A stretch of DNA of 63,972 nucleotides, filler included, from Candidatus Hydrogenedentota bacterium (GTDB taxonomy: Bacteria > JBFMHD01), in assembly GCA_040752395.1 (NCBI GenBank). It is 4 parts of 4 records of this genome, joined end to end, with 100 filler letters (N's around TTAATTAATTAA, not from the genome) between each part and the next. Parts side by side here need not be neighbours in the genome. Positions count along the whole stretch, not along the records: positions 1 to 16,279 come from JBFMHD010000045.1; positions 16,380 to 32,636 come from JBFMHD010000046.1; positions 32,737 to 48,924 come from JBFMHD010000047.1; positions 49,025 to 63,972 come from JBFMHD010000056.1. One strand, given 5' to 3'. This document shows positions 13,535 to 63,972 of the stretch, piece by piece. The notes under the pieces were generated by a model. That model did not search any database, was not told the DNA's origin, and was given only the letters and a program-made list of their open reading frames with translations. A program made the translations under genes and the position numbers. The stretch's first letter is position 1. Every line of letters begins with the position of its first letter.

Positions 13535-13571
13535 CTTGATATTATTATAGTTACAATGTTTTTCGAAGGGG
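13535..13571 (+). repeat. Conserved RBS-supplying repeat module
   Basis: CTTGATATTATTATAGTTACAATGTTTTTCGAAGGGG just upstream of the moeB ATG. Confidence 0.85.
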
Positions 13572-13580
13572 ATGTATTTT

Positions 13581-14399
13581 ATGAGTTTTACCGAGGAACA
13601 GATTGAACGATATTCAAGACATATCATACTTCAGGAAATAGGTGAGGAAGGTCAAAAGAAGATATTTGATTCAAAAATATTAGTTGTAGGGCTTGGTGGA
13701 CTTGGTAACCCGGCTTGTCTCTATCTCGCAGCTGCAGGTATCGGCACCCTCGGAATCCTTGATAGTGACGCTGTAGAACTATCAAATCTTAATCGACAAA
13801 TTTTACATACTACAGAAGATATAGGTAAAGATAAAGTTATATCTACCAAGGAAAAAATTAATAAACTCAATAAAGATGTAAAAGTAATTACGCATAAAAC
13901 AAAGTTTACCGTGGATAATGCTATGGAGATAATCAAAGATTATGATTTTGTAATAGATGGTTCGGATAATTTTTCAACCAAGTTTTTAATCAATGATGCT
14001 TGTGTACTTTTAGACAAACCGTTTTCTCATGCGGGTGTTTTAAGATTTGATGGTCAGAGTATCACAGTGATACCCAATAAAACGCCGTGTTATAGATGTA
14101 TCTTTCCTGATATGCCGCCACGAGACGTTATTCCAACATCTCAGCAAGCAGGCGTTTTAGGTGTTGTACCCGGTGTACTTGGAACGATACAGGCTCTTGA
14201 AGCTTTAAAATTTGTTCTTGGCAAAGGAGATTTACTTACTGGCAGGTTATTTGTTTTTGATGCTCTTAAGTTAACAGTACGAATTATAGAGATAAAGAAG
14301 AATGAAAACTGTAAGATATGTGGCAATGGGCCTGAAATCTTGAGATTAGAAAGCAAAAATTATATAGAGAAAGTTTTATACTGCTCTCCTGAAACGTGA
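13581..14399 (+). CDS. moeB: MoeB/ThiF family E1-like adenylyltransferase
   Basis: RYSRHIIL, VVGLGGLG, SNLNRQILH, DGSDNF, PCYRC and CKIC Zn motifs. Confidence 0.9.
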   Translation: MSFTEEQIERYSRHIILQEIGEEGQKKIFDSKILVVGLGGLGNPACLYLAAAGIGTLGILDSDAVELSNLNRQILHTTEDIGKDKVISTKEKINKLNKDVKVITHKTKFTVDNAMEIIKDYDFVIDGSDNFSTKFLINDACVLLDKPFSHAGVLRFDGQSITVIPNKTPCYRCIFPDMPPRDVIPTSQQAGVLGVVPGVLGTIQALEALKFVLGKGDLLTGRLFVFDALKLTVRIIEIKKNENCKICGNGPEILRLESKNYIEKVLYCSPET

Positions 14400-14420
14400 G
14401 ACACTTTAAAGGGGAGTACT

Positions 14421-14511
14421 CATAAGCGCGGTTTGCGCTCTACGCTATTCGGTTCTTGGGTTATTGGGTTATTGCGTTTTTGCGCTCTACACAAAGTATG
14501 AAAAACCAGAT
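14421..14511 (+). repeat. 91-bp repeat downstream of moeB
   Basis: Near-identical to 13417-13507. Confidence 0.9.
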
Positions 14512-14557
14512 ATTTTTCTTTAGTTTTAACTTTTAACTTTCTATGTGATGTTTTTTT

Positions 14558-14995
14558 ATGCTGAGTATATCTCAAAAACTACTTGATGATATGTTAAATC
14601 ATTGTAAAGGTGATTATCCTTATGAAGCCTGTGGGCTTATCGCAGGAGTAAATTGTAAAGCAATTAAAGTATATCCAATGAAAAACATCTCAGACACAAA
14701 AGAGACCTGTTATAAAATAGACCCACAAGAACAATTAAAAGTATTTAAAGAAATACGAGAACAAAATTACGAGTTATTAGCTATATACCATTCTCATATC
14801 AACACAAAAGCATACCCTTCAATCAAAGATATCTCACTTGCTTTTTATGAAGAAGCTTCTTATATTATTATTTCTCTGAAAAATAGAGAAGTTTTAGATA
14901 TACAATCATTCAAAATTAAAGAGACTAACATTACTAAAGAAGAACTTAATATAATAGAAGGAGGAGCGAACGATTGGTATAAAGATTTATCTTAA
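14558..14995 (+). CDS. JAB/MPN (M67, Mec-like) metallopeptidase
   Basis: YPYEACGLI and IYHSHINTKAYPSIKD (HSH..PS..D). Confidence 0.92.
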   Translation: MLSISQKLLDDMLNHCKGDYPYEACGLIAGVNCKAIKVYPMKNISDTKETCYKIDPQEQLKVFKEIREQNYELLAIYHSHINTKAYPSIKDISLAFYEEASYIIISLKNREVLDIQSFKIKETNITKEELNIIEGGANDWYKDLS

Positions 14996-15026
14996 TGGTT
15001 AGGAAGAACAAGTTGAAAAACCCTAA
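14970..15026 (+). pseudogene. ThiS-like sulfur carrier N-terminal remnant
   Basis: GGAGG, then ACG (mutated start?)-IGIKIYLNG*EEQVEK, cut by the inverted repeat. Confidence 0.5.
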
Positions 15027-15197
15027 CCCGAATAAATCGGAAAAGAAATATTACCACGGAATAATCGGAAAAACACCAGACACGGGATCATTCCAGCATT
15101 ATCGGATTGAATTTTATTGAAATACAGAAAAACATTCTGTGTTTCAATGGTAAAATATTTTTGTTGAAAATGTCAAGATTTTATTTGTAAGGTACTA
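15022..15197 (-). repeat. 176-bp repeat, right copy
   Basis: Inverted copy of 13194-13369; its outer end is the TAG stop of the heptosyltransferase gene. Confidence 0.95.
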
Positions 15198-16187
15198 TTT
15201 CTCTTTTTTATTAATTAACTCCTCAAATTGAGTATAGACGTAATCTGGGGTAATAGATTTCATACATTTGAAATGTTTTCCCGGGCATTTATTTGGTCCG
15301 TGGGGAGAACAGGGTCTGCAGTATAAATCAGTCTCACAGACTATAGAATCAGAATACAATGGATAAAATCCGAATTCTTTAACTGTTGGTCCCATAACAC
15401 AGATACTCGGAACATTAAGACTTGATGCGATATGAACATTTGCAGAATCATTCGCTATAACTACTCTTGCTTTAGAAATTATAAACATTAAATCAGAAAG
15501 ACTTGTTCTACCACACATATTTAATACCCTGTCTTTTATATTAATAATATCCTCTGTCTTCTTACAAATTTCTTCTTCAGATTTTTCACCTGTTATTACA
15601 ACAAAAATACCGTAGTTATTAATAATTTTTCTTCCCAGCTCACCGAACCTCTCAAACGGCCAGCGTTTTGTAGCCCATTTTGCGCCTGGTGAGATAACAA
15701 TAAAATCCTCTGGCAATTTTATATCTTTATCTTTGATAAAATCTGTATTTCTATAAGAAAACTCTCTTATATACTGGTATTTATCACCAAGTAAATCAAA
15801 ATTTCTATCTATTTCATGTATATTATATCTATACTTTATTTTTTTAGTATAAAATAGTTTTCCGCCGCCTTTACAAAATCCTATTCTTTCAGGTATACCG
15901 CCCCAAAAAGCGATTGCACCTGAGCGAAACGATCTGTGCGGCATATATGCGATATCATATTTTATAAGTCTTATTTCTTTTATAAGTTTTATAGTCTCGC
16001 TTATACTTTTCTTATCAAGTTCAAAAATATTATTGATCTCTTTTACCGTCTTGAATAGATCCGATAACCCCTTTTTTATAATAATATCCAATCTCGAATC
16101 AGGAAAATTAAATCTTAATGTATAAATAAAAGGGAGCATAAGAACGAGATCACCTGCAAAAGCTGTTTGGATCACAAGTATCTTCAT
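15195..16187 (-). CDS. waaF: GT9 LPS heptosyltransferase II-like
   Basis: MKILVIQTAFAGD, SPGAKWATKRWP, GRTSLSDL, NDSANVHIA, CRPCSPHG. Confidence 0.75.
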   Translation of the reverse strand: MKILVIQTAFAGDLVLMLPFIYTLRFNFPDSRLDIIIKKGLSDLFKTVKEINNIFELDKKSISETIKLIKEIRLIKYDIAYMPHRSFRSGAIAFWGGIPERIGFCKGGGKLFYTKKIKYRYNIHEIDRNFDLLGDKYQYIREFSYRNTDFIKDKDIKLPEDFIVISPGAKWATKRWPFERFGELGRKIINNYGIFVVITGEKSEEEICKKTEDIINIKDRVLNMCGRTSLSDLMFIISKARVVIANDSANVHIASSLNVPSICVMGPTVKEFGFYPLYSDSIVCETDLYCRPCSPHGPNKCPGKHFKCMKSITPDYVYTQFEELINKKEK

Positions 16188-16210
16188 TAGCAATGCCTTG
16201 GTTATATATT

Positions 16211-16279
16211 AGAAGCAAGAAGCAAGAAGCAAGAAGCAAGATAACGGAAAGAAAGATAACGAAAGAAGCAAGAAGCAAG
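16211..16279 (+). repeat. AGAAGCA heptamer tandem tract with AAGATAACG units
   Basis: Seen directly; same family at 32737, 35155, 47317, 58737, 59694 and 63891. Confidence 0.9.
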
Positions 16280-16379
16280 NNNNNNNNNNNNNNNNNNNNN
16301 NNNNNNNNNNNNNNNNNNNNNNNTTAATTAATTAANNNNNNNNNNNNNNNNNNNNNNNNNNNNNNNNNNNNNNNNNNNN
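16280..16379. other. Scaffold gap with artificial linker
   Basis: N run containing TTAATTAATTAA. Confidence 0.98.
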
Positions 16380-16591
16380 ATATTTATAAAATGCAAGATT
16401 AATTTTTCGATTACTGTATTCCCTCAGTTTTCGGTGGGATTCCGTAATCTTGCTTCTTGTTTCTAAAGTATAAGTTCTACTGCACCAATAACTGAGGCAT
16501 TACCGATTACCGAACTTAAGAACTCCTTCGAAGACTGAATGGATACATTTTATAATTGATTTTTTATTGAAAGAAATATACATTATTAATT

Positions 16592-17947
16592 ATGGTAAAA
16601 ATACTTATTGTTGAAGACGAAAAACGGATTATAGATTCTCTTCTTGATGCTTTCAAGCTCGAGGGTTATTTTGCCAAAGGTTCTAATACCATAAAAGAGG
16701 CTCAGATGAATTTATATAATGAGCCATTTGATATAATTCTTCTTGATCTATGGTTGCCTGATGGTGATGGTATGAAACTTATCGAAGAGCTTAATAAAAA
16801 CGAGATAAGACCAGATATTATTGTTATGACCGGTCATGGCACCATTGAAAAAGCGGTTAATGCCATAAAACTTGGTGCTTTTGATTTTATTGAGAAACCG
16901 TTAAACCTTAACAGAGTTTTAGTATCTATAAAAAATTGTATAAAACTAAGAAAAACGACCTGCGAAAATATTGAAATAAAAAACAGAGGAGATGAAACAG
17001 GAGAGATTATTGGTGAATCGAGGGCTATAAAGGACGTTCTTCAAATAATTGACAAAGTTGCAAAAACCGATGGGAGGGTATTAATCACTGGAGAGAATGG
17101 TACGGGTAAAGAGTTAGTAGCAAGATTGATACATCGAAGGAGTTTAAAAAAGGATCAGCCATTTATTAAAGTTAATTGTGCTGCTATACCAAAAGAATTG
17201 ATTGAGAGCGAGCTCTTCGGTTATGAAAAAGGTGCATTTACCGGAGCCGTTGGTTTAAAATACGGTAAATTTGAACTGGCGCATAAAGGGACAATATTTC
17301 TTGATGAAATAGGTGATATGGATTTATCGCTGCAGGCTAAAATACTGAGAGTTTTACAGGACGGCGAATTTGAAAGAGTTGGTAGTAATAAAACGATAAA
17401 AGTTGATGTGAGGGTTATATCAGCAACAAATAAAGACATAAAAAAGGAAGTCGATGAAAAACGCTTTAGAGAAGACTTGTATTATAGATTGAACGTGATA
17501 CCGATTTATGTACCACCTTTACGTGAGAGGAGAGAAGACATAATTCTTCTTGTGAATTATTTCTTGAATAAATTCTGTATCAAAAACAACAAGAAGTTAA
17601 AAACTATTGAAACCGAAGCCTGTAAATTTCTTATGGCGTTAGAATGGAAAGGGAACGTTAGAGAACTACAGAACATTATTGAAAGGATAGTAATATTATC
17701 TTCAGACGAAATAATACGAAAAAAAGATGTGGAAAATATTATTGGACATAAAGAAATAAATATTCAAGAATATCATGGCGAACAACTTAGAGCCCTTGTA
17801 GCTGAATTTGAAAAAATGGTGATTTTAAAGGCACTGCAATATTCTGATGGAAGCATTCAAAAAACAGCTGAACATTTAGGATTGGAACGCACAGGACTAT
17901 ATAAAAAGATGGAAAGGTTAGGGATAAAGAAATGGAGTGAGCGATAG
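16592..17947 (+). CDS. Sigma54-dependent response regulator (NtrC/NtrX family)
   Basis: REC domain (LLDLWLPD), GENGTGKE, GAFTGA, WKGNVREL, Fis HTH. Confidence 0.93.
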   Translation: MVKILIVEDEKRIIDSLLDAFKLEGYFAKGSNTIKEAQMNLYNEPFDIILLDLWLPDGDGMKLIEELNKNEIRPDIIVMTGHGTIEKAVNAIKLGAFDFIEKPLNLNRVLVSIKNCIKLRKTTCENIEIKNRGDETGEIIGESRAIKDVLQIIDKVAKTDGRVLITGENGTGKELVARLIHRRSLKKDQPFIKVNCAAIPKELIESELFGYEKGAFTGAVGLKYGKFELAHKGTIFLDEIGDMDLSLQAKILRVLQDGEFERVGSNKTIKVDVRVISATNKDIKKEVDEKRFREDLYYRLNVIPIYVPPLRERREDIILLVNYFLNKFCIKNNKKLKTIETEACKFLMALEWKGNVRELQNIIERIVILSSDEIIRKKDVENIIGHKEINIQEYHGEQLRALVAEFEKMVILKALQYSDGSIQKTAEHLGLERTGLYKKMERLGIKKWSER

Positions 17948-18478
17948 ATGGATTTAAGTAAAATTGAGACACTTTTAAGTGAAAAAGAGATTTCGAATAA
18001 GATAAAAGAGTTAGGCGAGATTCTGAATGAGCATTATAAGAATTATAAATCAGTTTATGTAGTTGGTATTTTAAATGGTTGTTTTGTTTTTCTCTCAGAT
18101 ATTATCAGGTATCTCAGGTTCCCGTTACTTTTTGATTTTATGACTGTTAGAAGTTATGGAAAGTATGTGGAATCAAGTGGCGTAGTACAAATAATTAAAG
18201 ATTTAAATGTGTCTTTATATAATAAAAACGTACTTGTAATTGAAGATATAATTGATACACGATTATCGTTGATGACAATAGATACAATGCTAAAGACTCG
18301 GCAACCACGTGAAATTAGATACTGCGTACTTCTTGATAAACCCCAGAGAAAAAAAATCGATATGTTTGTTGACTGGATAGGTTTCAGTATCCCGGACGTA
18401 TTTGTTGTGGGTTATGGGCTTGATTATGCTGAAAAATATAGAAACCTTTCTTTTATCGGTATATTAAAAAATGGATAA
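17948..18478 (+). CDS. hpt: Hypoxanthine phosphoribosyltransferase
   Basis: VLVIEDIIDT PRPP motif, FVVGYGLDYAEKYRNL. Confidence 0.93.
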   Translation: MDLSKIETLLSEKEISNKIKELGEILNEHYKNYKSVYVVGILNGCFVFLSDIIRYLRFPLLFDFMTVRSYGKYVESSGVVQIIKDLNVSLYNKNVLVIEDIIDTRLSLMTIDTMLKTRQPREIRYCVLLDKPQRKKIDMFVDWIGFSIPDVFVVGYGLDYAEKYRNLSFIGILKNG

Positions 18479-19046
18479 TAGTGATTATTGTGAAATTACA
18501 GATTTAAAATTATTAACCAGAGCAGAACTGAGGGAATTCTGTTTACAGATAGTGTATCAGAAATCAGGTGATAAGAGGTTTGAGAGGGTTATTAAATTTT
18601 TGACTGATCTTGCTATATGGCTCCAGAAGAAAGACCTTACTTTTAAACAACTTAAAGCTTTTCAGAAGATAATAGATAATCATAAGCTTGGCTATATCAG
18701 GGTTGGTTATCTTAAAAGGAGCAAGGATGATTTATCCCGCAGTATAGAAAGAACAAAATTTTATCCTACCAGCCCCAAGCACAAAGAAGACTCGACCTAT
18801 AAATATGAGAAGATACGAAGATTATTTCTTGAAGTCTTTGAGATAGCTGATATCACAGGCGTAGAGATCTTACAACAGCTTGAACAATTGAGTAAAGATT
18901 ATTCATACGAAGAAATAGAAGATGCATTCTTAAGATTAAGAAGTTACAGGATGGGGAAAACCATCTCTTCTATAATTAAAATTATTCATAATGCAAGAAG
19001 TTTGCTTGCTTCAAAAACAAATAGAGGTGAGAAGATAACTACATAA
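18471..19046 (+). CDS. Hypothetical protein, possibly with a DnaD/DnaB_2-like C-terminal domain
   Basis: 191 aa overlapping hpt; YSYEEIEDAF..TISSIIKII loosely resembles the DnaD domain. Confidence 0.5.
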   Translation: MDNSDYCEITDLKLLTRAELREFCLQIVYQKSGDKRFERVIKFLTDLAIWLQKKDLTFKQLKAFQKIIDNHKLGYIRVGYLKRSKDDLSRSIERTKFYPTSPKHKEDSTYKYEKIRRLFLEVFEIADITGVEILQQLEQLSKDYSYEEIEDAFLRLRSYRMGKTISSIIKIIHNARSLLASKTNRGEKITT

Positions 19047-19138
19047 TTCGTTATTGCGTTATTGCGTTCTAAATTCCGTCTGCTGACCACAGATTTCTGC
19101 ATTTCGCATTCTGACTTTTTTAAAGGATGTTGTCCTCA

Positions 19139-19256
19139 GGCTCCAGCCGGCTGTAGTCCGTAGCCTGTAGCCTGTACCCTGTCCTGATACCTCTCACTTC
19201 TTCCGTTATCTTGCTTCTACTTGATATTATTATAGTTACAATGTTTTTCAGAGGAG
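19139..19256 (+). repeat. Composite intergenic repeat (GGCTCCAGCCGGCTGTAG module + RBS module)
   Basis: Matches the reverse complement of 35118-35262 apart from the heptamer content. Confidence 0.9.
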
Positions 19257-19258
19257 AT

Positions 19259-20047
19259 ATGGAAAAAATAGAGAAGATAATAACAAAAATTGAAATGATA
19301 AAAGACTTATCAGAGGAACTGAAACAAGATAAAGAAGCGCAATGTAAATTATGTAATGATACAGGATGGATATTCAAGAAGGATTACACACTGCAGAGAT
19401 GTACACATCTTGAAGCAGAAAATTTTATTAATACACAAAAAAGTATTGAGAGTTTTCTTGATGAATTGAGAGTAGGGATGCCGGAAAGATTCAAACCTGA
19501 TCAGATACCTCAATGGGATCTTGAACTTATCTCTTATGAGTATCAGAAGATAATGCTCAACAAAATACAGGAACTTAGCCAGGGACAAAGAAGTAATATA
19601 GGTCTTTTTTTGTACGGACCCCCGGGTGATGGTAAAACCTACTCTGTATGTTTTATTATAAATTCATTAGTAGAGCCGAGGATTATGCATTGTGCTTTTT
19701 TTAATTATCCCCGTCTTTTAGCCGCTATCAGAGATAATTTTCATAATTATGATGTGCTGGATAGATTAAAGGAATTGTTATTTGAAACGGATCTGATTGC
19801 CCTAGATGATCTCGGCATGGAAAGGAAAGTAGAAGACCCGGATACCTCATGGTCCATTGATTTATTATACCAGGTCATTGATTACAGGTGCGATAATTTT
19901 AAACCTGTACTTATAACTTCAAACAGGGACCCTGATGAACTCGAGGATCAGATTAAAAAGGGTATATGGTCAAGAATCCGGGGGATGTGTGATATCCATA
20001 AAATGCCTGCTGATGATTTAAGACATCTAAAAAAAGATGAGAAGTGA
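19259..20047 (+). CDS. DnaC/DnaI/IstB-like AAA+ ATPase (helicase loader-like)
   Basis: CKLC..C N-terminus, GPPGDGKT, IALDDLG, LITSN, SRIRGM. Confidence 0.8.
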   Translation: MEKIEKIITKIEMIKDLSEELKQDKEAQCKLCNDTGWIFKKDYTLQRCTHLEAENFINTQKSIESFLDELRVGMPERFKPDQIPQWDLELISYEYQKIMLNKIQELSQGQRSNIGLFLYGPPGDGKTYSVCFIINSLVEPRIMHCAFFNYPRLLAAIRDNFHNYDVLDRLKELLFETDLIALDDLGMERKVEDPDTSWSIDLLYQVIDYRCDNFKPVLITSNRDPDELEDQIKKGIWSRIRGMCDIHKMPADDLRHLKKDEK

Positions 20048-21926: not shown

Positions 21927-22010
21927 AGTCTCGAATTGTAAATTGTAGTTTACTTCTTACGTTATCTTGCTTCTTGCCTCTAAATAAAGGCAAATAAATT
22001 TGCAATTTAC

Positions 22011-22037
22011 TAAAGTCTAAAAAAAAATAGCCGATAA
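22011..22037 (+). promoter_or_regulatory. Sigma28 (FliA-type) promoter
   Basis: TAAA-N15-GCCGATAA, exact consensus. Confidence 0.75.
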
Positions 22038-22087
22038 TATTAATGGAGAAAGGGATTCTCCAAAATTAGTGCCAAGGAGGGACTACG

Positions 22088-25210: not shown

Positions 25211-25213
25211 ATT

Positions 25214-26720: not shown

Positions 26721-26868
26721 AAAGTAAAGAGATAGAGGTAAGAAGCGCACTGTTCTATTGTCCTGGCTGCTTTATGTGGCCAGGATAATAGACAGCCGGG
26801 AATAGTCAACATTCTTTCGAGAGGTCTCTTTTAAAACCCTGTTTATCGCATCTAAAGATGCTCACTAC

Positions 26869-27060
26869 TTGCGCTCTACACAAAGGATGAAAAACTAAAG
26901 ATGATATGAAAAGAGTCGTGAGTCACAAGTCGCAAGTCGTGAGTCAAAACAGGACTCAAGACTCAAGACTTTTCAGCAGGCTTTTGGCTTTTGGCTCCAG
27001 CCGGCTGTAGTCCGTAGCCTGTAGCCCGAATTATTAGAGTTACAACGTTTTTCAGAGGAG
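26869..27060 (+). repeat. Composite intergenic repeat
   Basis: 26869-26966 is an inverted copy of 49025-49122 (one mismatch), followed by the GGCTCCAGCCGG module and the RBS module. Confidence 0.9.
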
Positions 27061-27347: not shown

Positions 27348-27460
27348 ACATATTGAAAGATTAAAAGATTAAAAGATTGAAAGAATACGGCGGAGTTAGA
27401 AGTTAGGAGTTCGTAATAATAGCTCCGAACTCCGAACTTTTTCAGATGAGGTGAGATGAT

Positions 27461-28724: not shown

Positions 28725-29060
28725 TGAATCGTAAGTCATCAGTATTTGACTTACAACTTATTGACTGATTTTATGACTCTTGACTCTAGACTTTTCAGCA
28801 GGCTACAGACTACAGACTTCAGATTGGAGACTACAGGCTCTTCAGGCTTCAGGCTCCGGGCTTTTGGCTCCAGCCGGCTGTAGTCCGTAGCCTGTAGCCT
28901 GTACCCCGAATTATTAGAGTTACAATGTTTTTCAAAGGAGTCATCATGCGGTGTGTTGCACCGCTACACAAAGCCTGAAAAACCAGATTCAGACGTTTTC
29001 TTGCCTCTTGCTTCTTGCTTCTACTTGATATTATTAGAGTTAGAATGTTTTTCAGAGGAG
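28725..29060 (+). repeat. Long mosaic intergenic repeat between pgk and tpiA
   Basis: GACTCTT, CTACAGA and GGCTTCA heptamers, GGCTCCAGCCGG module, two RBS modules (28911-28940, 29024-29060), TTCTTGC heptamers. Confidence 0.88.
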
Positions 29061-32636: not shown

Positions 32637-32736
32637 NNNNNNNNNNNNNNNNNNNNNNNNNNNNNNNNNNNNNNNNNNNNTTAATTAATTAANNNNNNNN
32701 NNNNNNNNNNNNNNNNNNNNNNNNNNNNNNNNNNNN
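32637..32736. other. Scaffold gap with artificial linker
   Basis: N run containing TTAATTAATTAA. Confidence 0.98.
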
Positions 32737-35108: not shown

Positions 35109-35117
35109 CTCTTAAGC

Positions 35118-35262
35118 CTCCTCTGAAAAACATTGTAACTATAATAATATCAAGTAGAAGCAAGAAGCAAGATGCAAGATAACGAAAAAAGTAAGAAGTA
35201 AGAAGTGGGAAGTGAGAAGTATCAGGACAGGCTACAGGCTACGGACTACAGCCGGCTGGAGC
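35118..35262 (-). repeat. Composite intergenic repeat ending in the RBS module
   Basis: Reverse complement of the 19139-19256 architecture with extra heptamers. Confidence 0.9.
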
Positions 35263-35285
35263 CTGAAGCCAACATATCATCTTTA

Positions 35286-40870: not shown

Positions 40871-41326
40871 CTATCTTTTCAATCCGTGTCTTGTAATAAC
40901 ACAGACCACAGTTTCTGATCTTGTATTTTTTTCTACTGTCCAGCATACTACAGTTTCAATCTTAATAAAATCTGTTGGAATATCAGCTAATGCTGCATCT
41001 GAAAGACTACCATTAGCATTCTGTTTTTGATATCTAATGAATGTTTTTCTTGAATAAATGCTTCCGGGCAATTTACCTTCATCAAACGAAGCAGAAAGAT
41101 TATAAGCGAGCGAGTCCGCCTCAATCTTACTGAAACCATAAGACCTTAATTCTTCAAGTTTCTCAGCAGCAAGATGGCTTGAGCAAGCAACAGTCCCGAT
41201 ATGAAACGTATTCATCTCGAGCCTGTTTAACGCAAGAACAATCGGTAAAAGCCCTAAAGCTAAAATAGATAATGCTATGAGAAGCTCAATTAAAGAAAAG
41301 CCGTTACGCCTATGTTCTGGATTCAT
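40871..41326 (-). CDS. Prepilin N-methylation domain protein (PilV/GspI-like)
   Basis: GFSLIELLIALSILALG; LAAEKLEELR. Confidence 0.87.
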   Translation of the reverse strand: MNPEHRRNGFSLIELLIALSILALGLLPIVLALNRLEMNTFHIGTVACSSHLAAEKLEELRSYGFSKIEADSLAYNLSASFDEGKLPGSIYSRKTFIRYQKQNANGSLSDAALADIPTDFIKIETVVCWTVEKNTRSETVVCVITRHGLKR

Positions 41327-41384
41327 AGACCCCTTTGAAAAAAGTAAGAAGTAAGAAGTGAGAAGTATCAGGACAGGCTACAGA

Positions 41385-41484
41385 CTCCGGGCTTCGGGCT
41401 CCAGCCGGCTGTAGTTCGTAGCCTGTAGCCTGAACCCAACTTCCTTTAAAAAATTCAGAATTCGGAAATAATCTTTGAATCTTT
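41385..41484 (+). repeat. 100-bp direct repeat downstream of pilC
   Basis: Two mismatches versus 42759-42858. Confidence 0.93.
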
Positions 41485-41519
41485 GTGCCTCTGTGCCTTT
41501 GGGCTTCTTGCTTCTTGCC

Positions 41520-42731
41520 TCAATGTATCAGATCAGCAAGACTAAGTATCGGTAAAAATAAAGCGATTATAACAAAACCAAGTACAATACCCAGAAAGAC
41601 AATGAGTATAGGTTCAATAAGAGAAGAGAAGGCTTCTACAGCAACATCAACCTGCTCTTCATAAAAATCAGATGCTTTAATAAGCATCTCACCCAGATTC
41701 CCGGTAGATTCGCCAACAGCTACCATTTGAACTACAAGCGGCGGGAAGATACCGCTTTGTTTTAAAGGTTGAGCAAAGGTTTGACCTGAACGGATTGATT
41801 CCTGCACATTAGCAATAGTATCTTCTATGATAAGATTAGCTGCTGTTTTAGTAACAACGTTAAGAGCCTGAATTATAGGTACACCACTTATAGTTAAAGT
41901 GCCAAGTGTTCGGCTGAATCTTGATATAGAAACTTTTAAGATAAGTTCACCAAAAACAGGCATTTTTAGTTTATATTTGTCAATAACTCTACGGATATTT
42001 TCGTTCTTTAACCCTATCCTGTAGATCACATATAAAATTATAAACCCAAGAAATACAAAAAGGTAGTAAACTCTGATTAAATCAGAGATAAACATAAGAA
42101 TTCTGGTGGGTAGCGGGAGATGAGCTCCTGCATGAGCAAAAGTATCAGCAAATTTCGGGACGACAAATGTGAGGATACCCCATACAATGAGTATCGCTAT
42201 GGATGAGACTACAACAGGATAAGTCATAGCACCCTTGATTTTACGCCTTAATCGCTCTGTGTTCTCAAGATACGTAGCAAGTCTTTCAAGGATTACATCA
42301 AGGACTCCACCAGCTTCACCTGAACGTAACATATCCACATACATAGTCGAAAATATTTTAGGGTGTTTAGATAAAGCCTCAGATAAATCTGAACCACTCT
42401 CTATATCATGAATAAGTTTACCGATAATTTCTTTAAAATATTCACCTGACATTTGTTCCTGCAGGGTTCTTAATGAAGTAACAATTGGTAGTCCAGCATT
42501 AATAAGTGTTGCAAACATTCTGGTGAATAGCACAAGTTCTGAGCTTTTGACTTTTTTCTTTGTGAAGATATTAATATAACTCAATATAGATTCTTTGATT
42601 TCTTCAACATTTAAGACGGTTAATTCCTGGGCTCTTAATCTTGTTATAATTTCTCTGGGATTGGCGCCGAGAAGAACGCCCTGAACAAGCTCGCCTGATC
42701 GGTTTTTTGCTTTATAACTGAATTCTGGCAA
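41520..42731 (-). CDS. pilC: Type IV pilus platform protein
   Basis: FTRMFATLINAGLP, SGEAGGVL, AMTYP, VGESTGNL, LIEP; TTG start. Confidence 0.95.
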   Translation of the reverse strand: MPEFSYKAKNRSGELVQGVLLGANPREIITRLRAQELTVLNVEEIKESILSYINIFTKKKVKSSELVLFTRMFATLINAGLPIVTSLRTLQEQMSGEYFKEIIGKLIHDIESGSDLSEALSKHPKIFSTMYVDMLRSGEAGGVLDVILERLATYLENTERLRRKIKGAMTYPVVVSSIAILIVWGILTFVVPKFADTFAHAGAHLPLPTRILMFISDLIRVYYLFVFLGFIILYVIYRIGLKNENIRRVIDKYKLKMPVFGELILKVSISRFSRTLGTLTISGVPIIQALNVVTKTAANLIIEDTIANVQESIRSGQTFAQPLKQSGIFPPLVVQMVAVGESTGNLGEMLIKASDFYEEQVDVAVEAFSSLIEPILIVFLGIVLGFVIIALFLPILSLADLIH

Positions 42732-48924: not shown

Positions 48925-49024
48925 NNNNNNNNNNNNNNNNNNNNNNNNNNNNNNNNNNNNNNNNNNNNTTAATTAATTAANNNNNNNNNNNNNNNNNNNN
49001 NNNNNNNNNNNNNNNNNNNNNNNN
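48925..49024. other. Scaffold gap with artificial linker
   Basis: N run containing TTAATTAATTAA. Confidence 0.98.
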
Positions 49025-49190
49025 TTGAGTCTTGAGTCCTGTTTTGACTCACGACTTGCGACTTGTGACTCACGACTCTTTTTATATCATCTTTAGTTTT
49101 TCATCCTTTGTGTAGAGCGCAAAAACCCAAAAACGCAATAACCCAATAGTGTAGAGCGCAAACCGCGCTCATGTTGACTCCTTCGAAAAA
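49025..49190 (-). repeat. Composite intergenic repeat
   Basis: Inverted copy of 26869-26966 fused to a relative of 13400-13507. Confidence 0.9.
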
Positions 49191-49264
49191 GTTCTGTCTC
49201 TTTAATATCATTTTTATAATATAAAGGCAAGAAAAATTATTTAAAAAATCTGTATTCCCGAATA

Positions 49265-57687: not shown

Positions 57688-57916
57688 TATATATAACTGC
57701 ACCAAGTAAACTTCCACACCCTATGCTCATCCACACACATAAGCTACCGCCACCAACGTCCTGGCTGTGCGGAGTAATCATAGGTGTGTGGGCTTATGCC
57801 CGGGGTGTGGTGGTAAAAAACTTTTTATTAATTAATTATTATATACAATATCGGTAAAAAAACAAGCTTTTCTTTAATAATATTTAACATCTGGTTTAAG
57901 GCATAAAGACACAAAG

Positions 57917-58705
57917 TTAAAGTGTCTTTGAAAAGTATAAAGAGAAAAAATTGGCTGGATTTTTAGGTACAAACCCTTTTATATCACTACCTTCAAGAAC
58001 TGATTTAGGGTTATCATAGACCAGAATTTCCGCCATTTTCTCTCCAACAATTTCTGCAGCTTTATCTCTTGCTTGAGAAAGAACTGGTTTTCTTGTTGTT
58101 GTGTTATGCGAGTCGGTCCCGATAAAATGTATAAGTCTGCATTGTAATAATTTAAAAGCAAGTTTTTGTATATCCTTGCCAAAAACACCGGTTATACTTG
58201 GTGCATCCATCTGGCATAAAACACCCTTTATAACTAAATCATAAATAATAGAAGGGTCTTCAATGACTGTTTTAATACGCTCTGGGTGACTTAATACTGG
58301 TATAATCCCGTCAATAAGGCATTGGAAGATCAATAGTTCAGCCCAGTCAGGGATATTATATAAAGAAAACTCGATTAATAAGTATCTGTTATTTTTGTTT
58401 AGAGGCAAGATAGTTTTTTTCTGTAATAAATGTTTTGTCATATCTTCAGATGCCATATTTTCAGATGCAGGATGAAGCTTAACATTTATCTTTTCATTTT
58501 CTGCTATTTCGTTTAGAAGACTGACATTAGAATGTATTAATTTTACTTTTTCTTTATCTACACTATTTGTGAGTAGATGCGGTGTAGCTATTATATCAGT
58601 GATACCATCCTGTTCTGCGATACGCATCATTTCAAGCGAGGTTTCAAAATCATCTGGTCCATCATCAAGATTTGGTAATATATGAGAATGTATGTCAATC
58701 ATACT
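57917..58705 (-). CDS. PHP-family protein tyrosine phosphatase (CpsB/CapC/YwqE)
   Basis: IDIHSHILPNLDDG, ATPH, HPER, GTDSHN..RKP. Confidence 0.9.
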   Translation of the reverse strand, partial: SMIDIHSHILPNLDDGPDDFETSLEMMRIAEQDGITDIIATPHLLTNSVDKEKVKLIHSNVSLLNEIAENEKINVKLHPASENMASEDMTKHLLQKKTILPLNKNNRYLLIEFSLYNIPDWAELLIFQCLIDGIIPVLSHPERIKTVIEDPSIIYDLVIKGVLCQMDAPSITGVFGKDIQKLAFKLLQCRLIHFIGTDSHNTTTRKPVLSQARDKAAEIVGEKMAEILVYDNPKSVLEGSDIKGFVPKNPANFFSLYFSKTL

Positions 58706-58765
58706 CATCATCCTGATTCGTAATCCCTCAATGGTTAGATAACGAAAGAGGCAAGAAGCAAGAAG

Positions 58766-59683
58766 CTAACGTGGTTGATATCCTTTTAAGAGTTCAGTAT
58801 CAGTCATTATTCTTTTTCCGGGTCGCTGAATAACATTTAATCTTATAACCGCATCTTTACATTTTATAAACAGACCCTTTTTAACATCTGAGATTACAAT
58901 ATCGCCACAAGAGAAATTATTGCAATTAATATTATTGTAAACTTCAACTTTAAGTATCTTCCATACCTCATTTCTAATTTGTAAATGAGCAGCTGGTTGC
59001 GGTGACAATCCTCTTACTTTTCCTAATATTTTGTTTGCTTCTTGATCCCAATCTATAAAGAAATCGTCTTTCCGTAATACCCTTGCGTATGTTGCTTTAG
59101 AATCGTCCTGTGGTTGTGGCTTGATATTATCAATATTATTTAAAACATCAATCAGTAAATCAGCACCTGTTTCAAACAGCCGTAAAGATAGAGATAGATA
59201 ATTGTCGGAAGGATCTATTTTAACATTGGTTGATGCAAGTATATCGCCAGCATCCATTTTAAGAGCAGTGTAATGTATTGTTACACCTGTCTCTGCTTTA
59301 TTATCAAATAACACATAACGTACAGGAGCTGCACCCCTGTATTCAGGTAATAGAGATGGATGAACATTCAAGGTTTTCAAGCGCGGGAATGAGAATAATA
59401 TTTCAGGTATATATAAACCGAACGAAGCTACAACCCCGATATCAGGATTTAAATCTTTAACCCAATTATAGACTTCATCAGAATTAAGTTTCAGAGGATG
59501 AATAACATTTATATTATTACAAAGACAGAATTGTTCAACCTCGGTTGGGATGATATGTCTTCCCCTACCCCGGGGTTTGGCCGGTTTCGTAATACAGCCA
59601 CATAATATAAAATTTTTATTGTTAAAAAGCTTTTTTAGAATTATAAGTGAATCCGAACCAGAGCCATAAAAAAGTATCTTCAT
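58766..59683 (-). CDS. fmt: Methionyl-tRNA formyltransferase
   Basis: PRGRG, LNVHPSLLPEYRGAAP, MDAGDI; start set at MKILFYG. Confidence 0.93.
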   Translation of the reverse strand: MKILFYGSGSDSLIILKKLFNNKNFILCGCITKPAKPRGRGRHIIPTEVEQFCLCNNINVIHPLKLNSDEVYNWVKDLNPDIGVVASFGLYIPEILFSFPRLKTLNVHPSLLPEYRGAAPVRYVLFDNKAETGVTIHYTALKMDAGDILASTNVKIDPSDNYLSLSLRLFETGADLLIDVLNNIDNIKPQPQDDSKATYARVLRKDDFFIDWDQEANKILGKVRGLSPQPAAHLQIRNEVWKILKVEVYNNINCNNFSCGDIVISDVKKGLFIKCKDAVIRLNVIQRPGKRIMTDTELLKGYQPR

Positions 59684-59779
59684 AAGTAATAATAAGATAA
59701 CGAAAGAAGCAAGAAGCAAGAAACGAGAAGAATTAGAAAGTAAGATTAACAAACTCCGCTTCAAAACTGAGGGATTAGT

Positions 59780-60295
59780 TTAAAATTTGTAATCTTTGAC
59801 AAAAATTTTTTCTATTCTTTCCCTCTCCTCTTTATTAGCTATATGATCAATCAACAATATACCATTAAGATGATCAATTTCGTGTTGTATAGCTCTTGCT
59901 ACGAGGCCAGAGGATTTAAATCTATTTTTTTTACCTGTGATATCTAATGCTTCAGAGATAATCGTATCAGGTCTGAATATTTTTACGTAGACACCTGGGA
60001 AACTTAAACAACCCTCTTCAAATTCCTGTTTTTCTTTAGATTTTTTAATTATAGACGGATTAATTAAAGCTGTTCTGAATCTTTTGTTGTTTTCGAGCGG
60101 GACATTGAGTACTATAATACTTTTTAATGCTCCGGTTTGTTGTGCTGCTAAGCCTATGCCCCTGGATTGGTCTAAAAGTGAAAACATAGAGTCAACGTAT
60201 TCTTTAATTCTTTTAGAGACTTTTGTCACAGGTTCTGATTTTTTTCTTAACACCGGGTCAGGATATATCCTTAAAGTTAAGACCAAGTTTGTCAT
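59780..60295 (-). CDS. def: Peptide deformylase
   Basis: GIGLAAQQ, EGCLS, QHEIDHLNG. Confidence 0.96.
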   Translation of the reverse strand: MTNLVLTLRIYPDPVLRKKSEPVTKVSKRIKEYVDSMFSLLDQSRGIGLAAQQTGALKSIIVLNVPLENNKRFRTALINPSIIKKSKEKQEFEEGCLSFPGVYVKIFRPDTIISEALDITGKKNRFKSSGLVARAIQHEIDHLNGILLIDHIANKEERERIEKIFVKDYKF

Positions 60296-60325
60296 CCTCC
60301 AGGGTTGTATTCCCGCGGTTACGAA

Positions 60326-62248
60326 TCACGGTATTTTTAATACTGGTTTCGAGTATTTGGGGATCTCTTTCTTGATACTTGATAAATCAGGATTAATAAT
60401 TTCTTCTTCCTCGACGCCTTTACCCACAATGTGTGGTGTTACAAATATGATAAGTTCCTGATTGAGTTTTTCCTGTCTTTTCCTTTTAAATAAATTACCA
60501 ATTATCGGGATATCACCAAGTAGCGGTGTTTTTGCCTCTTCTTCTTCTATCTCTTCTCGCAGAAGACCACCTATCGCGATGGTTTTATTATTCATAACAT
60601 CAAGTATCGTGGATGCATTTTCACTTGAAATAAGAGGATAGTCTATCGCATCAATTGTTTGATTACCATGAAAACTCCGTACCGATGGATATATCTCCAG
60701 GTTGATTATTTCATTTTCTTTTATACGTGGTGTAACTTTTAAAACGATCCCGATATTAGGTATCTCACTTACGGTTCGTGTTGTAATAACGTTACCCTGA
60801 TTATCAAGTTGTGTAGTTTGAGCCGAGATATACCAGGCATTGGTTACAACAGACATAACAGCCATCTCATTATCAAGTACTAAAACCCTTGGTTTAGATA
60901 AAATTTTAGCCGTACCCTGGGAAACCAGGAATTCAATAAGATTTGTAATAGTAAAATTTTTAAACTTACTATTTATGGTAATATCTGTAGAAGAGAGATT
61001 TAAATCAAGGTCAATGGTTCCTGTATATAACGGATTTCGTCCTCTGTTATCAGCTACTGTCCAGTCTATACCCATATTTTTAAAAGCATTGGTATTAACT
61101 TTTAAAAAGTATGCTTCAATAAGTATCTGTTTTTTAGTGGTATCGATCTTTGAAATGATGTCTTTTTTAAATTGTTCAATCACATAAAATGTTGATGTAA
61201 CAATAACACTGTTGGTTTTAATATCTACGGAGAGACTACTTGTAATGCCAGATGGAGTAATATTAGTTAATAACTGGCTAAGAATTGGCACGATATAACT
61301 TTGTTGCGGCTCTATCTCACGACTGATACTACTCCCCACAGGGGTTACTTGCTGTACAGGTGATTTAGATAAAGAGATATGCTCTAATCTTATAACCTCG
61401 GTTACAAGGAAATTTATACCAACAGAGATTTTATCTTCACTCTCGAGCATTGAGGTTTTCAAAGTTTTAACAACTTCTTTTAATGCGTCACAGGGTTCTA
61501 AATCTTTTAGAGGAAAATTTATTTCAAAACTTCTTTCAGATGGTGCAACTATTATAGGCTTATTAATCTTATCAGAGATAAAATCACAGAATTGACCAAG
61601 ACTTAATGTGTCACTGCCAGTAACATCGTAATAGATACAATTGTCTTTAACTTTTATTTTGGTTAACCTGTCGAACATCTTTTTATTCTTGTTTATCTCA
61701 GCTTTATACTGATTGTATTTTAGATAATCTATTATTTCAGTTATCTGCTCAATATTTTCAGGATAATCCTTTATAACAACGGTTCGGGTTGCATCGTAGA
61801 TAGTAAATTTACCTGATGTTGAAATCATATTATTAAGAATATTATTTAATATATCAGCATCCAGATCACCGATATCAATGGTAACGGTCCGAGCTTTTAA
61901 ATGTGCTGGTACTTGTTGAGAGAGCGAGGGGTTTTCAATGAAATAAATATTATCATATTTGTACAGCCGTAAATCAAGTGAGTTACATATAGTCCAGAGA
62001 GCCTGTTCCGGGGTTACATTGTCAAGATTTATGTTAACGTATAATGGTTCATTATAACTTTTATTTGCATCCATACCAGCATTCTTTCCAAGCACGATAT
62101 TTAATCCGCTCTGTTCAGATATAGCCCTTATAACATCCTCAAGCTTTGCGTTTTCAAAGTCAATATTTAAAGTATTTGATAGTGGTGAAGAAAGTACAGT
62201 GGAATAAATAAAAATCAGTAATAATAATATAAAACTTCTTTTGAACAT
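60326..62248 (-). CDS. pilQ: Secretin (PilQ/GspD family)
   Basis: QILIEA, LGIDW-like MGIDW, ILSKPRV, IAIGGL, KTPLLGDIPIIGNLFK, ELIIFVTPHI. Confidence 0.9.
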   Translation of the reverse strand: MFKRSFILLLLIFIYSTVLSSPLSNTLNIDFENAKLEDVIRAISEQSGLNIVLGKNAGMDANKSYNEPLYVNINLDNVTPEQALWTICNSLDLRLYKYDNIYFIENPSLSQQVPAHLKARTVTIDIGDLDADILNNILNNMISTSGKFTIYDATRTVVIKDYPENIEQITEIIDYLKYNQYKAEINKNKKMFDRLTKIKVKDNCIYYDVTGSDTLSLGQFCDFISDKINKPIIVAPSERSFEINFPLKDLEPCDALKEVVKTLKTSMLESEDKISVGINFLVTEVIRLEHISLSKSPVQQVTPVGSSISREIEPQQSYIVPILSQLLTNITPSGITSSLSVDIKTNSVIVTSTFYVIEQFKKDIISKIDTTKKQILIEAYFLKVNTNAFKNMGIDWTVADNRGRNPLYTGTIDLDLNLSSTDITINSKFKNFTITNLIEFLVSQGTAKILSKPRVLVLDNEMAVMSVVTNAWYISAQTTQLDNQGNVITTRTVSEIPNIGIVLKVTPRIKENEIINLEIYPSVRSFHGNQTIDAIDYPLISSENASTILDVMNNKTIAIGGLLREEIEEEEAKTPLLGDIPIIGNLFKRKRQEKLNQELIIFVTPHIVGKGVEEEEIINPDLSSIKKEIPKYSKPVLKIP

Positions 62249-62249
62249 T

Positions 62250-62702
62250 TTATAAGCTTTTAATCCTTAGTTCGAATATTTTACCTTCAGGCGTAATCAA
62301 AACTACCCTGTCTTCACAGATTTTAATATTATAATTATCCGTCAAGACAGGATACACTATTTTATCTTTTATAGCAATCCATTTTTTATTGTTTGAGGTA
62401 TAAATCAATGCCACAGGATTATATTCATCCCAGATTAAACCGCCGAGTCTGTAGTCAACAGAGGCTTGAGTTGTTTGCACTTCGTAATCTATATTCTGAA
62501 CAAACGATTGTACCGGGATAAAAGGGTCTCGTAAATTGTATGACTTAAATTCGTATGATTCTCTTTTAAACTTTTGAGTATCTACATCGGCTTGTAATAA
62601 GATATCTTTTGTAATAACGGCTTTATTCACCTCGACACTCTTTCTGCTGCAGCTTATTAGTGCGATAACAGAAATTAAAAGCAATAATAAAAGATTTTTC
62701 AT
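62250..62702 (-). CDS. pilP: PilP-like lipoprotein
   Basis: Lipobox LISC, RDPF motif, LGGLIW..PVALI; lies between pilO and pilQ. Confidence 0.7.
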   Translation of the reverse strand: MKNLLLLLLISVIALISCSRKSVEVNKAVITKDILLQADVDTQKFKRESYEFKSYNLRDPFIPVQSFVQNIDYEVQTTQASVDYRLGGLIWDEYNPVALIYTSNNKKWIAIKDKIVYPVLTDNYNIKICEDRVVLITPEGKIFELRIKSL

Positions 62703-63253
62703 CTTGATACCCTGTATGTTGATAAATCCAGTGTAAAACTTATAGATGATTTTTTCTCGAGTTTGGAAACGATTTTTATATTGATGACTTTAACCAATCT
62801 TTCAAGTTTGGTTATCTCGGAAAGAAATAAGCCAAGTGACGGGAACCCGCCTGTTCCTTCAATATGTATCGGTACCTCCATATATTCTCCTTTGTTACCT
62901 TCCTGTGTCGGCGTGAATACATTCATTTTTATTCCAAAATTTTGCGCTAATTTTGAGAGGTTCTCAAGTATAACCTCGATCTCTTTTTCTGTGGGAAGCA
63001 CCTGTTTCGCTATCTCAAGTTCCTTTTTTAAATTATCTAATTGACCTTTAATAATAGCCTCTTTATTAGCAATGGTTTCTGCTTTATTTAGCTCTTCCTG
63101 TTTCTGATTGATTGTCTGAATCTTATTCTGGATGTCCAGCCAGAGGGGAGATAAAAAATATAGGTAGTATATGTAAATAGAACCCGCGATGAGTAAAGAT
63201 ATATAAATCGTTTTGTGCTTTTTTGGTATCTTGTCCCATCCAAGATTTAACAT
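62699..63253 (-). CDS. pilO: Type IV pilus protein PilO
   Basis: TM, coiled coil, LPTEKEI, EVPIHIE..G, LERLV. Confidence 0.9.
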   Translation of the reverse strand: MLNLGWDKIPKKHKTIYISLLIAGSIYIYYLYFLSPLWLDIQNKIQTINQKQEELNKAETIANKEAIIKGQLDNLKKELEIAKQVLPTEKEIEVILENLSKLAQNFGIKMNVFTPTQEGNKGEYMEVPIHIEGTGGFPSLGLFLSEITKLERLVKVINIKIVSKLEKKSSISFTLDLSTYRVSR

Positions 63254-63257
63254 ACTA

Positions 63258-63282
63258 CTCCTCTGAAAAACATTGTAACTCT
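63258..63282 (-). repeat. RBS-supplying repeat module upstream of pilO
   Basis: Minus strand AGAGTTACAATGTTTTTCAGAGGAG. Confidence 0.85.
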
Positions 63283-63290
63283 TGAATCTT

Positions 63291-63848
63291 TCAATATGTT
63301 TTCAACCTGCATCTTAAAAGGAAAGCGAGTTCCACGGTTTGGAGTTCTTCTTTGATTTTTCTAAAAGAAAAATTAACATCCTCGAAGACACCCGAACTTT
63401 TAACGCGAGATATGTATTGCACAAGGTTCTCTTCAGCACCTCGCTGGCTTGTTGATACAACTCTGCCATCAATATATATGCCACCAGCATCATTGTAAAA
63501 AGAAGCGAAATAAACGCCATCACTGATAGTCATATTCAAATCATCGAGAACCCGGGGCCATAAAGCCTGACCCTTTAATAACTCTTCAATAAGTAATACT
63601 TTCTTTTTTAATATATCTCTCTCTGTCTCAACTTTTTTAAGGTTTTCAACCACGGGCTTCAATTCATTCAAACGTTTATCTATTCTGGCAATTATATTAT
63701 CGAGATTAAAATTATAATAATAAATCCCCAAAGAAAAAAGTAATATACTGCTAATAGCGCCAAAAATACCTGCAATAATGAAATTTTTCCTTAGTCTTTC
63801 TTTTTTTCTTATATAGAATTCTTGTGGTAAAAGATTAAGTTGTAGCAT
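63291..63848 (-). CDS. pilN: Type IV pilus protein PilN
   Basis: LNLLP N-terminal motif, TM, coiled coil. Confidence 0.88.
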   Translation of the reverse strand: MLQLNLLPQEFYIRKKERLRKNFIIAGIFGAISSILLFSLGIYYYNFNLDNIIARIDKRLNELKPVVENLKKVETERDILKKKVLLIEELLKGQALWPRVLDDLNMTISDGVYFASFYNDAGGIYIDGRVVSTSQRGAEENLVQYISRVKSSGVFEDVNFSFRKIKEELQTVELAFLLRCRLKTY

Positions 63849-63852
63849 TATA

Positions 63853-63972
63853 CTCCTCTGAAAAACTTTGTAACTATAATAATATCAAGTAGAAGCAAGA
63901 AGCAAGAAGCAAGATAACGAAAAAGAAACATAACGAAAGAACCAAGAAGAAAGAGGCAAGATAAAGAAAGAG
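63853..63972 (-). repeat. RBS module plus heptamer tract upstream of pilN
   Basis: Minus strand TTCTTGC repeats, then CTTGATATTATTATAGTTACAAAGTTTTTCAGAGGAG. Confidence 0.9.

Follow-up and report, generated by a model that had tools for sequence, protein, structure and literature searches.

Dispersed repeats that bring expression signals to unrelated genes are known from Neisseria and from Borrelia plasmids. As portrayed in passages of a review (PMC3184786), the neisserial REP2 (CREN) repeats and the Borrelia IR-A/IR-B repeats are dispersed, have no terminal inverted repeats, contain a promoter and a ribosome-binding site, and lie directly upstream of unrelated open reading frames (ORFs) in the same orientation; a REP2 copy, of which there are 23-26, is 120-150 bp long, takes in the ATG and bears two internal stem-loops near its 5' end. 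A 150-bp CREN ahead of nhba is present in some strains and absent from others, according to an excerpt of a further study (PMC9031163). Here we describe a repeat of comparable logic in the draft genome of a Candidatus Hydrogenedentota bacterium (JBFMHD01; GCA_040752395.1), starting from a window of 63,972 nucleotides (the whole stretch of DNA covered by the initial annotation). The repeat is a short module with the core AGTTACAATGTTTTTCAGAGGAG, which ends in a Shine-Dalgarno (SD) sequence just ahead of start codons. Since the window joins four draft contigs (C290, C291, C292 and C302) through N spacers at 16280-16379, 32637-32736 and 48925-49024, mid-operon position is judged within single contigs only; several of the contig ends at these joins fall in repeat sequence.

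By description, and not by sequence, REP2 and the Borrelia IR repeats appear to be the closest known class, going by the review passages. Like them, the module is intergenic, upstream of unrelated ORFs and co-oriented with these (299 of 373 copies in the genome; 7 of 8 in the window), and it carries a ribosome-binding site (AGAGGAG, at 4-12 nt in 254 of 298 copies). Where those repeats have a promoter, the module has TGnTATTAT in the 237 copies with one kind of left flank (type A), with no -35 element, and the form with a second left flank (type B) has no TG. Unlike REP2, the module is present in at least 373 copies in 2.84 Mb, over tenfold more; its similarity stops at GGAG, ahead of the start codon, whereas REP2 includes the ATG; and its constant part is a 23-36-nt end piece of a variable mosaic of heptamers. 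REP2 has two internal stem-loops, and here the upstream mosaic folds into predicted hairpins. Thus, the statement in the initial annotation that no named system fits was too strong. The logic of a repeat that carries expression signals was already known from REP2 and the Borrelia IR repeats, as the review passages describe them; what is new here is the density, the modularity, the end at GGAG and the heptamer-mosaic context.

The heptamers also have a described counterpart. An excerpt of one study describes TAACTGA heptamer repeats in marine Beggiatoaceae, in cyanobacteria and in Bacteroidetes, with 169 sets in a single genome; it reports canonical ribosome-binding sites as being rare in the spacers that hold these repeats and proposes polymerase slippage as their source (PMC4679880, citing Mrazek et al. 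2007). As far as this excerpt goes, the likeness consists in intergenic tandem heptamers, many of them a few nucleotides from start codons, at genes of unrelated function. In contrast to those single-heptamer arrays, the arrays here combine many heptamers (and some octamers) in recurrent order, and the module at their end is unique, non-repetitive and equipped with a canonical SD sequence. The mosaic is built of head-to-tail heptamers, as simple-sequence repeats are; the 23-36-nt end module itself is non-repetitive. A search within a limited literature collection found no published description of such a heptamer mosaic.

Other modular repeats are less close. The PeSL of T4-type phages, as outlined in part of one paper, are intergenic cassettes of promoter and hairpins that serve as recombination sites reshuffling genes (PMC2839356); these belong to phages, and their promoter and terminator activity has been demonstrated, whereas the present mosaic is in a cellular genome and is known from its sequence, and structure prediction did not bear out a specific hairpin that masks the SD. 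Miniature inverted-repeat transposable elements (MITEs) and REP/REPIN-RAYT systems are likewise short, high-copy, non-coding intergenic repeats, with hairpins such as those in parts of the mosaic. Here, in contrast, there are no terminal inverted repeats and no RAYT gene, and the repeat is strictly co-oriented with genes and ends at a ribosome-binding site, so that membership in either group fails on the features examined. The pneumococcal BOX element has variable, repeated units between a fixed head and a fixed tail, and the mycobacterial MIRU is a repeat between operon genes that touches translation signals. The module resembles BOX in its composite build and MIRU in being operon-internal and at translation signals, but it differs from both in that the 23-36-nt unit is not tandemly repeated, no frame bridges stop and start, and there are far more kinds of module.

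A constant end module of a heptamer mosaic at gene starts

The draft genome (2.84 Mb in 349 contigs, 34.8% G+C, 93.84% complete) is the sole genome of its phylum among the species genomes compared. Allowing up to 3 mismatches, the core matched the window eight times (Table 1), at the places where the initial annotation had put it, and did not match any of 100 dinucleotide-preserving shuffles. The TTATTA(T/G) box that had been counted as part of the module precedes seven of these eight cores and is missing at 63258. Seven copies end 0-9 nt ahead of a start codon on the same strand, which agrees with the placement claimed for them, and the eighth (28918) precedes another repeat module. Genome-wide, with up to 4 mismatches, we found 373 copies of the core, 98 of them exact. 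Counting ORFs of at least 60 aa, or running off the contig, an ORF starts within 25 nt past the module in 299 of the 373 copies, compared to 2610 of 20000 random positions (13%) and 2145 of 10769 other GGAG sites (20%); the genome-wide scan that the initial annotation had proposed thus reveals a non-random relation to gene starts. The spacing from GGAG to the start codon ranges from 0 to 12 nt and beyond, and lies between 4 and 12 nt in 254 of 298 tallied copies.

The gene-proximal boundary is sharp. Identity among copies is 94-100% through the last G of GGAG and 43-49% one base later (237 type A and 115 type B copies), and thus the unit ends exactly at the SD, with the start codon outside it. 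Core positions 9-22, which comprise a U-tract and a purine tract, are 90-100% conserved, as is the AGAGGAG at positions 16-22 within them. Since TTTTTC lies upstream of 34 of 538 non-module GGAG sites, the U-tract belongs to the module and is not an organism-wide feature. Among 744 genes with GGAG 4-12 nt ahead of a candidate start, 206 use the GGAG of a module, and overall the module stands ahead of about one gene in eight.

The genes concerned are functionally unrelated, as had been claimed. Pfam matches were obtained for 13 of 15 module-preceded genes examined, and these fall into 13 different families; eight of the genes, in addition to those of the window, encode a tRNA methyltransferase, a sigma-54 activator, an IF-2B-family protein, a GGDEF protein, an ABC ATPase, a PilZ protein, a DeoC aldolase and ribosomal protein L11.

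The module is the constant, non-repetitive, gene-proximal 3' end piece of a mosaic intergenic repeat. Frequent 14-mers assemble into a composite of about 260 bp, in which the parts stand in fixed order, each being optional, and which consists almost wholly of tandem heptamers plus some octamers. The heptamer period is evident from the lag-7 autocorrelation of intergenic DNA (0.340, compared to about 0.28-0.29 at neighboring lags and 0.276 in coding DNA), from exact tandem duplications (6064 of 7-mers, 381 of 6-mers and 82 of 9-mers) and from a Tandem Repeats Finder run on the window, in which 38 of 98 rows have period 7. Mosaic sequence, defined by 16-mers present at least 10 times in the genome, makes up 25.3% of intergenic bases and 0.7% of coding bases. 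Several heptamer arrays are inverted pairs that are predicted to form long hairpins (folding z = -4.4 for the pgk-tpiA spacer).

Two left flanks account for most copies: (TCTTGCT)n-TCTAC-TTGATATTATTAK in the 237 of type A and (GTAGCCT)n-GTACCCCGAATTATTAG in the 115 of type B; the remaining 21 have neither, and about 6 of these are core-only, like the copy between the genes in pilN position and pilO. Exact 36-mers occur in up to 45 copies (45, 42, 28 and 23), and exact 60-mers in up to 20. Flank type is linked to an internal dinucleotide (AT in 142 of 237 type A copies, GC in 70 of 115 type B copies), with some recombinants. The many long exact copies and this linkage indicate copying with occasional recombination, and not convergence. 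Thus, the earlier idea of a non-autonomous element holds in so far as the module is copied, dispersed and non-coding, but not in that it would be free-standing, since it is the end of a heptamer mosaic.

The core is present on 206 of the 349 contigs and mosaic 16-mers on 302; the other 47 contigs (183 kb) have no mosaic 16-mer. At 114 of 698 contig ends, a core points inward within 400 nt. The repeat therefore breaks the assembly, and 373 copies is a lower bound.

We found no copy in 40 relatives, all of them related at domain level only, and an exact 23-mer scan gave 0 matches in metagenome contigs and 0 in viral contigs; in genome contigs there are at least 2 loci, each a single copy in its genome among the matches listed. 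No empty version of a module junction emerged from these comparisons. The best metagenome relatives of Pgk are 68-69% identical. In one relative contig (L014; 56% G+C, Pgk 68% identical), the pgk-tpiA junction has an unrelated 270-nt spacer; this spacer (L014:4264-4536) contains a long, perfect-looking inverted repeat of its own that has no relation to the module.

Two kinds of array within the mosaic deserve mention. (AAGATTx)n arrays often start 1-25 nt past stop codons (63281-63296 and 27348-27384 in the window), and thus some spacers are repeat-derived from the stop codon through the ribosome-binding site. A general anchoring of the left end of the mosaic at stop codons was considered and dropped, since 93 of 132 (AAGATTx)n matches have no ORF end nearby. 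In (TTTACAA)n arrays, four or more units put TTTACA exactly 17 nt ahead of TACAAT, so that such an array alone is a near-consensus sigma-70 promoter; arrays of this kind lie just upstream of tRNA-Lys(CTT) on C329 and of tmRNA on C281, and also occur on C201 and C293.

A possible portable gene-start cassette

On balance, we lean towards reading the module, the constant end of the heptamer mosaic, as a portable gene-start cassette that has spread by copying, with junctions at GGAG microhomology. Transcription of the module would yield a short 5' leader that comprises a U-tract and a strong SD (AGAGGAG), the latter 4-12 nt ahead of the native start codon. The module SD is very likely used in translation, and this is the safest element of the proposal because of the spacing, the orientation and the intact native starts; in the window, the Pfam profiles of downstream proteins begin at residue 4 (TIM), 7 (STAS) and 14 (ThiF), which argues that native N-termini were kept. 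The search pattern for the 3' end of 16S rRNA had no match in the draft genome. The initial annotation had envisaged a simple unit that supplies a ribosome-binding site: the SD position stands genome-wide, but only about 6 of 373 copies are core-only and most copies come with a promoter-like extended -10 box.

Type A copies, in which TTGATATTATTAK comprises TGn and TATTAT, probably have an extended -10 promoter as well. Transcription is predicted to start within the first few bases of the core, which would leave a leader of about 25-35 nt. The T and G at -12/-11 and the T, A, T, (T/C), A, T at -9 to -4 are 99-100% conserved save at hexamer position 4, and we give promoter activity of the type A module about even odds. 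Type B (CCCGAATTATTAG) and core-only copies probably provide leader and SD alone. Two other features of the core were ruled out by the same variable base (T in 60%, C in 65 and A in 30 copies of type A), namely TACAAT as a -10 box and the core-internal ATG as a leaderless mini-ORF. A profile of T7-like RNA polymerase (PF00940) matched nothing in the genome, and it matched none of 14 control genomes either.

In favor of a promoter in type A, a look-alike of its box, TTGATATTATTAAAATTACAAT, lies directly upstream of two tRNA-Pro genes (CGG and GGG), and upstream of the third (TGG) only the ATTAAAATTACA part is present; the tRNA-Pro genes with the look-alike are on contigs C5, C304 and C97. These sequences may be truncated copies of the module, or else a native promoter from which the module descends.

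Two tRNA genes are joined to the module itself. The first four mature bases of tRNA-Ser(TGA) (C28:157-267) and of tRNA-Tyr(GTA) (C175:3078-3181) are the GGAG of a type B module, with ARAGORN and the Rfam tRNA model in agreement on both 5' ends, and the tRNA-Tyr fusion is inside a tRNA cluster (another tRNA about 310 nt upstream, tRNA-Gly 39 nt downstream). The core is fused to 2 of the 4 tRNAs that start with GGAG and to 0 of the 39 others (hypergeometric P about 0.007, for a test picked after seeing the data); none of those 39 tRNAs has a core in the 150 nt ahead of it, save for one tRNA that merely follows tRNA-Tyr. These fusions hint at junctions by GGAG microhomology, and they are the one direct clue to an insertion at, or replacement of, SD sites as the initial annotation had inferred. 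Such junctions could arise by illegitimate recombination or template switching among slippage-prone heptamer arrays, and microhomology at GGAG would explain how the module lands on ribosome-binding sites with the gene still expressed, a mechanism that we propose weakly.

A more radical version is that the cassette homes on SD sequences, through a process of this lineage that pairs the GGAG end of the module with any genomic GGAG. Ribosome-binding sites would then be the landing pads, with GGAG-starting tRNAs hit by accident; each insertion would rebuild a working gene start, and the heptamer arrays would be a by-product or the substrate of the templating machinery. We regard this version as distinctly doubtful, although, if true, it would give a prokaryotic repeat a new way of choosing its targets.

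Several observations weigh against the gene-start cassette as we propose it. Seventy-four of the 373 copies are away from gene starts; some of these precede ordinary TTGACA-type promoters or a native SD distinct from their own, and thus landing on an SD is a strong tendency and no strict rule. The mean spacing is 7.4 nt for modules and 8.1 nt for non-module GGAG, a shortening that is not predicted by pure overlay on native ribosome-binding sites. With respect to the promoter, a sigma-70 consensus scan did not call the module, there being no good -35 at 16-18 nt, and the type B module has no TG of an extended -10. Moreover, divergent upstream genes were counted at 24 of 124 type A copies and at 7 of 65 of type B; an enrichment of type A at divergent, promoter-requiring sites was considered on these counts, and no clear difference emerged. 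The tRNA argument, finally, consists of two cases noticed post hoc, and both fused copies are type B, the form with no TG.

If the module works as its sequence implies, one copied start signal serves for the translation, and perhaps the transcription, of about one gene in eight, and the expression of some 300 unrelated genes would be uniform by descent and not tuned gene by gene. The module would then be an extreme natural 'standard part' and a handle on how a repeat comes to sit exactly at ribosome-binding sites. On the practical side, the repeat breaks assemblies, and it marks contigs as belonging to the genome, which could provide a check on binning.

Alternative explanations

We considered that the module might be a selfish, non-autonomous element (MITE-, REPIN- or PATE-like) that is mobilized in trans by an enzyme targeting GGAG, with the expression signals as a by-product. 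The high copy number with many identical copies, the strict orientation, the sharp GGAG end and the fusion to two GGAG-starting tRNAs are all consistent with this idea, and contig ends that break in the repeat are expected of a recently expanded family. We nevertheless find it improbable. In three window spacers, we found no inverted repeat linking the end module to the opposite end of the mosaic; the left boundary, moreover, varies among copies, and 23-36 nt is very small for a transposon. No candidate enzyme was found in the 93.84%-complete genome: the RAYT profile (Y1, PF01797) gave 0 matches, with control matches in 6 of 14 genomes, and RVT_1, rve and TnpB also gave 0, with their controls matched. 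Since multi-copy insertion sequences often remain unassembled, however, a missing enzyme is weak evidence. A gene family consistently enclosed by modules, which the initial annotation had suggested looking for, did not emerge among ORFs of at least 100 aa: none is present in 3 or more copies, bar 9 short frames that overlap the mosaic.

The genome does contain three DDE_Tnp_1 genes. They are on short contigs with no copy of the module, and for this reason an insertion sequence of this type was dropped as the source of the module; two of these contigs, C205 and C261, have no mosaic 16-mer at all and may be foreign to the organism. On either side of the DDE_Tnp_1 gene at C205:460-2250 lie inverted ends of about 44 nt, in which GCGTTTTTCA and TTTTTCAGG occur. 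Their likeness to one variant of the module is weak, a common T-rich stretch of 10 nt and no more, which we judged to be chance, and C205 may be a binning contaminant.

Alternatively, the module could act at the level of RNA, as the site of a global regulator or as a processing site that gives many mRNAs, and two tRNA precursors, a common 5' end, with selection and gene conversion keeping it uniform. In favor of this, it is the U-tract and the purine tract that do not vary, there are copies inside operon-like arrays (pilN-position ORF/pilO and pgk-tpiA) and in a tRNA cluster, and the TAACTGA repeats of Beggiatoaceae have been proposed, in the excerpt cited above, to bind S1, Csp or CsrA-type proteins (PMC4679880). 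We think this quite improbable. The analysis points to no particular regulator or RNase, the 23-nt core by itself is unstructured, and a regulator site would leave unexplained why DNA ahead of the likely transcription start is conserved. We also examined whether CT-rich heptamers upstream mask the SD on read-through RNA, as the predicted unpaired probability of the type A SD is 0.21 on a long RNA and 0.54 on a short one. Shuffled flanks give 0.18, however, and type B shows no masking; thus, this is an effect of composition and not of a specific hairpin. Finally, none of the repeat copies matches a model of Rfam 15 at E up to 1 (a single chance-level match lies elsewhere in the window), so that, given also the results for inverted repeats, RAYT, reverse transcriptase, rve and TnpB, the module matches no catalogued family, as the initial annotation had supposed.

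That assembly or binning produced the pattern, through chimeric contig ends or collapsed repeats, is suggested by the fragmented draft of 349 contigs, by the four N-joined contigs of the window and by the many contigs that end in the repeat, but is hardly credible, since 7 of 8 window copies lie deep in contigs between intact, unique genes with profile-matching N-termini, the core is on 206 contigs, and the copies differ by ordered sub-variants.

Window copies and sibling end pieces

The gene-start cassette that we favor is represented in the window by type A, type B and core-only copies (Table 1), seven of the eight being well inside contigs and flanked by unique, intact genes. Pfam confirms the ThiF/MoeB family (moeB), the IstB-like (DnaC-like) ATPase, TIM (tpiA), STAS and PilO downstream of these copies, in line with the names given earlier; pilN is the exception, as the ORF in its position has no Pfam match, and neither does the 93-aa ORF. 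The core-only copy sits in a 37-nt spacer between the pilN-position ORF and pilO, and the TGA stop of the former lies within a ATATTGAAAGATT-type module (63281-63296).

Table 1. End modules, sibling end pieces and associated mosaic blocks in the window
Feature	Position	Strand	Core match	Mosaic block	Downstream
Type A end module, CTTGATATTATTAT + core, SD variant CGAAGGGG	13535..13571	+	13549	13342-13571	ThiF/MoeB-family gene; GGAG end at 13571 to ATG 13572 (0 nt) or ATG 13581 (9 nt)
Type A end module, exact core	19220..19256	+	19234	19116-19259	2 nt to ATG 19259 of IstB-like/DnaC-like ATPase gene
Type B end module, CCCGAATTATTAG + core	27025..27060	+	27038	26820-27060 (heptamer arrays GAGTCGC, GACTCAA, GGCTTTT, CTGTAGC)	5 nt to ATG 27066 of 93-aa ORF
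Type B end module within pgk-tpiA spacer	28905..28940	+	28918		Away from gene starts; ATG-hairpin module 5 nt on (about 28946-28990)
Type A end module	29024..29060	+	29038		5 nt to ATG 29066 of tpiA
Type A end module, exact core	35118..35154	-	35118	35117-35285	9 nt to GTG 35108 of STAS-domain gene
Core-only copy, exact 23 nt	63258..63280	-	63258		4 nt to ATG 63253 of pilO
Type A end module	63853..63889	-	63853	Beyond 63889, AGAAGCA heptamers (+ strand) up to contig end 63972	4 nt to ATG 63848 of pilN-position ORF
Family 2 (sibling) module, (TAGGAGT)n - TCGTAATAATAG - (CTCCGAA)n - CTTTTTCAGATGAGGTGAG	27392..27455	+			5 nt, then pgk ATG 27461
Family 2 end piece CGAACTTTTTCGAAGGAG	13396..13413	+			ATG-hairpin module 5 nt downstream; no gene there
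Short end piece TTTTTTCAAAGGGG, abutting (ACTTCTT)n heptamers	41330..41343	-		41337-41521	3 nt to ATG 41326 of 151-aa ORF
Mosaic block at contig start	49025..49194	-		49025-49194	Family 2 end piece TTTTTCGAAGGAG at 49180, then ATG-hairpin module

The shorter versions that the initial annotation had reported ahead of pgk and of a PilV-like gene (ORF 40871-41326) are real, and they are sibling end pieces (TTTTTCAGATGAGG at pgk and TTTTTCAAAGGGG at ORF 40871-41326) fused to other modules of the mosaic.

A further module of the mosaic combines a hairpin with an ATG that lies 5 nt past a module SD. This ATG-hairpin module occupies 28941-28990 and 13414-13520 in the window, and it follows 36 of 106 family 2 copies genome-wide. 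It might serve as a decoy start, be translated as a mini-ORF, or have a structural role. A 10-codon frame starts at 28946 within it, and the hairpin arms vary among copies (GAGCGC...GCGCTC in some, GCGGTG...CACCGC in others) with complementarity kept.

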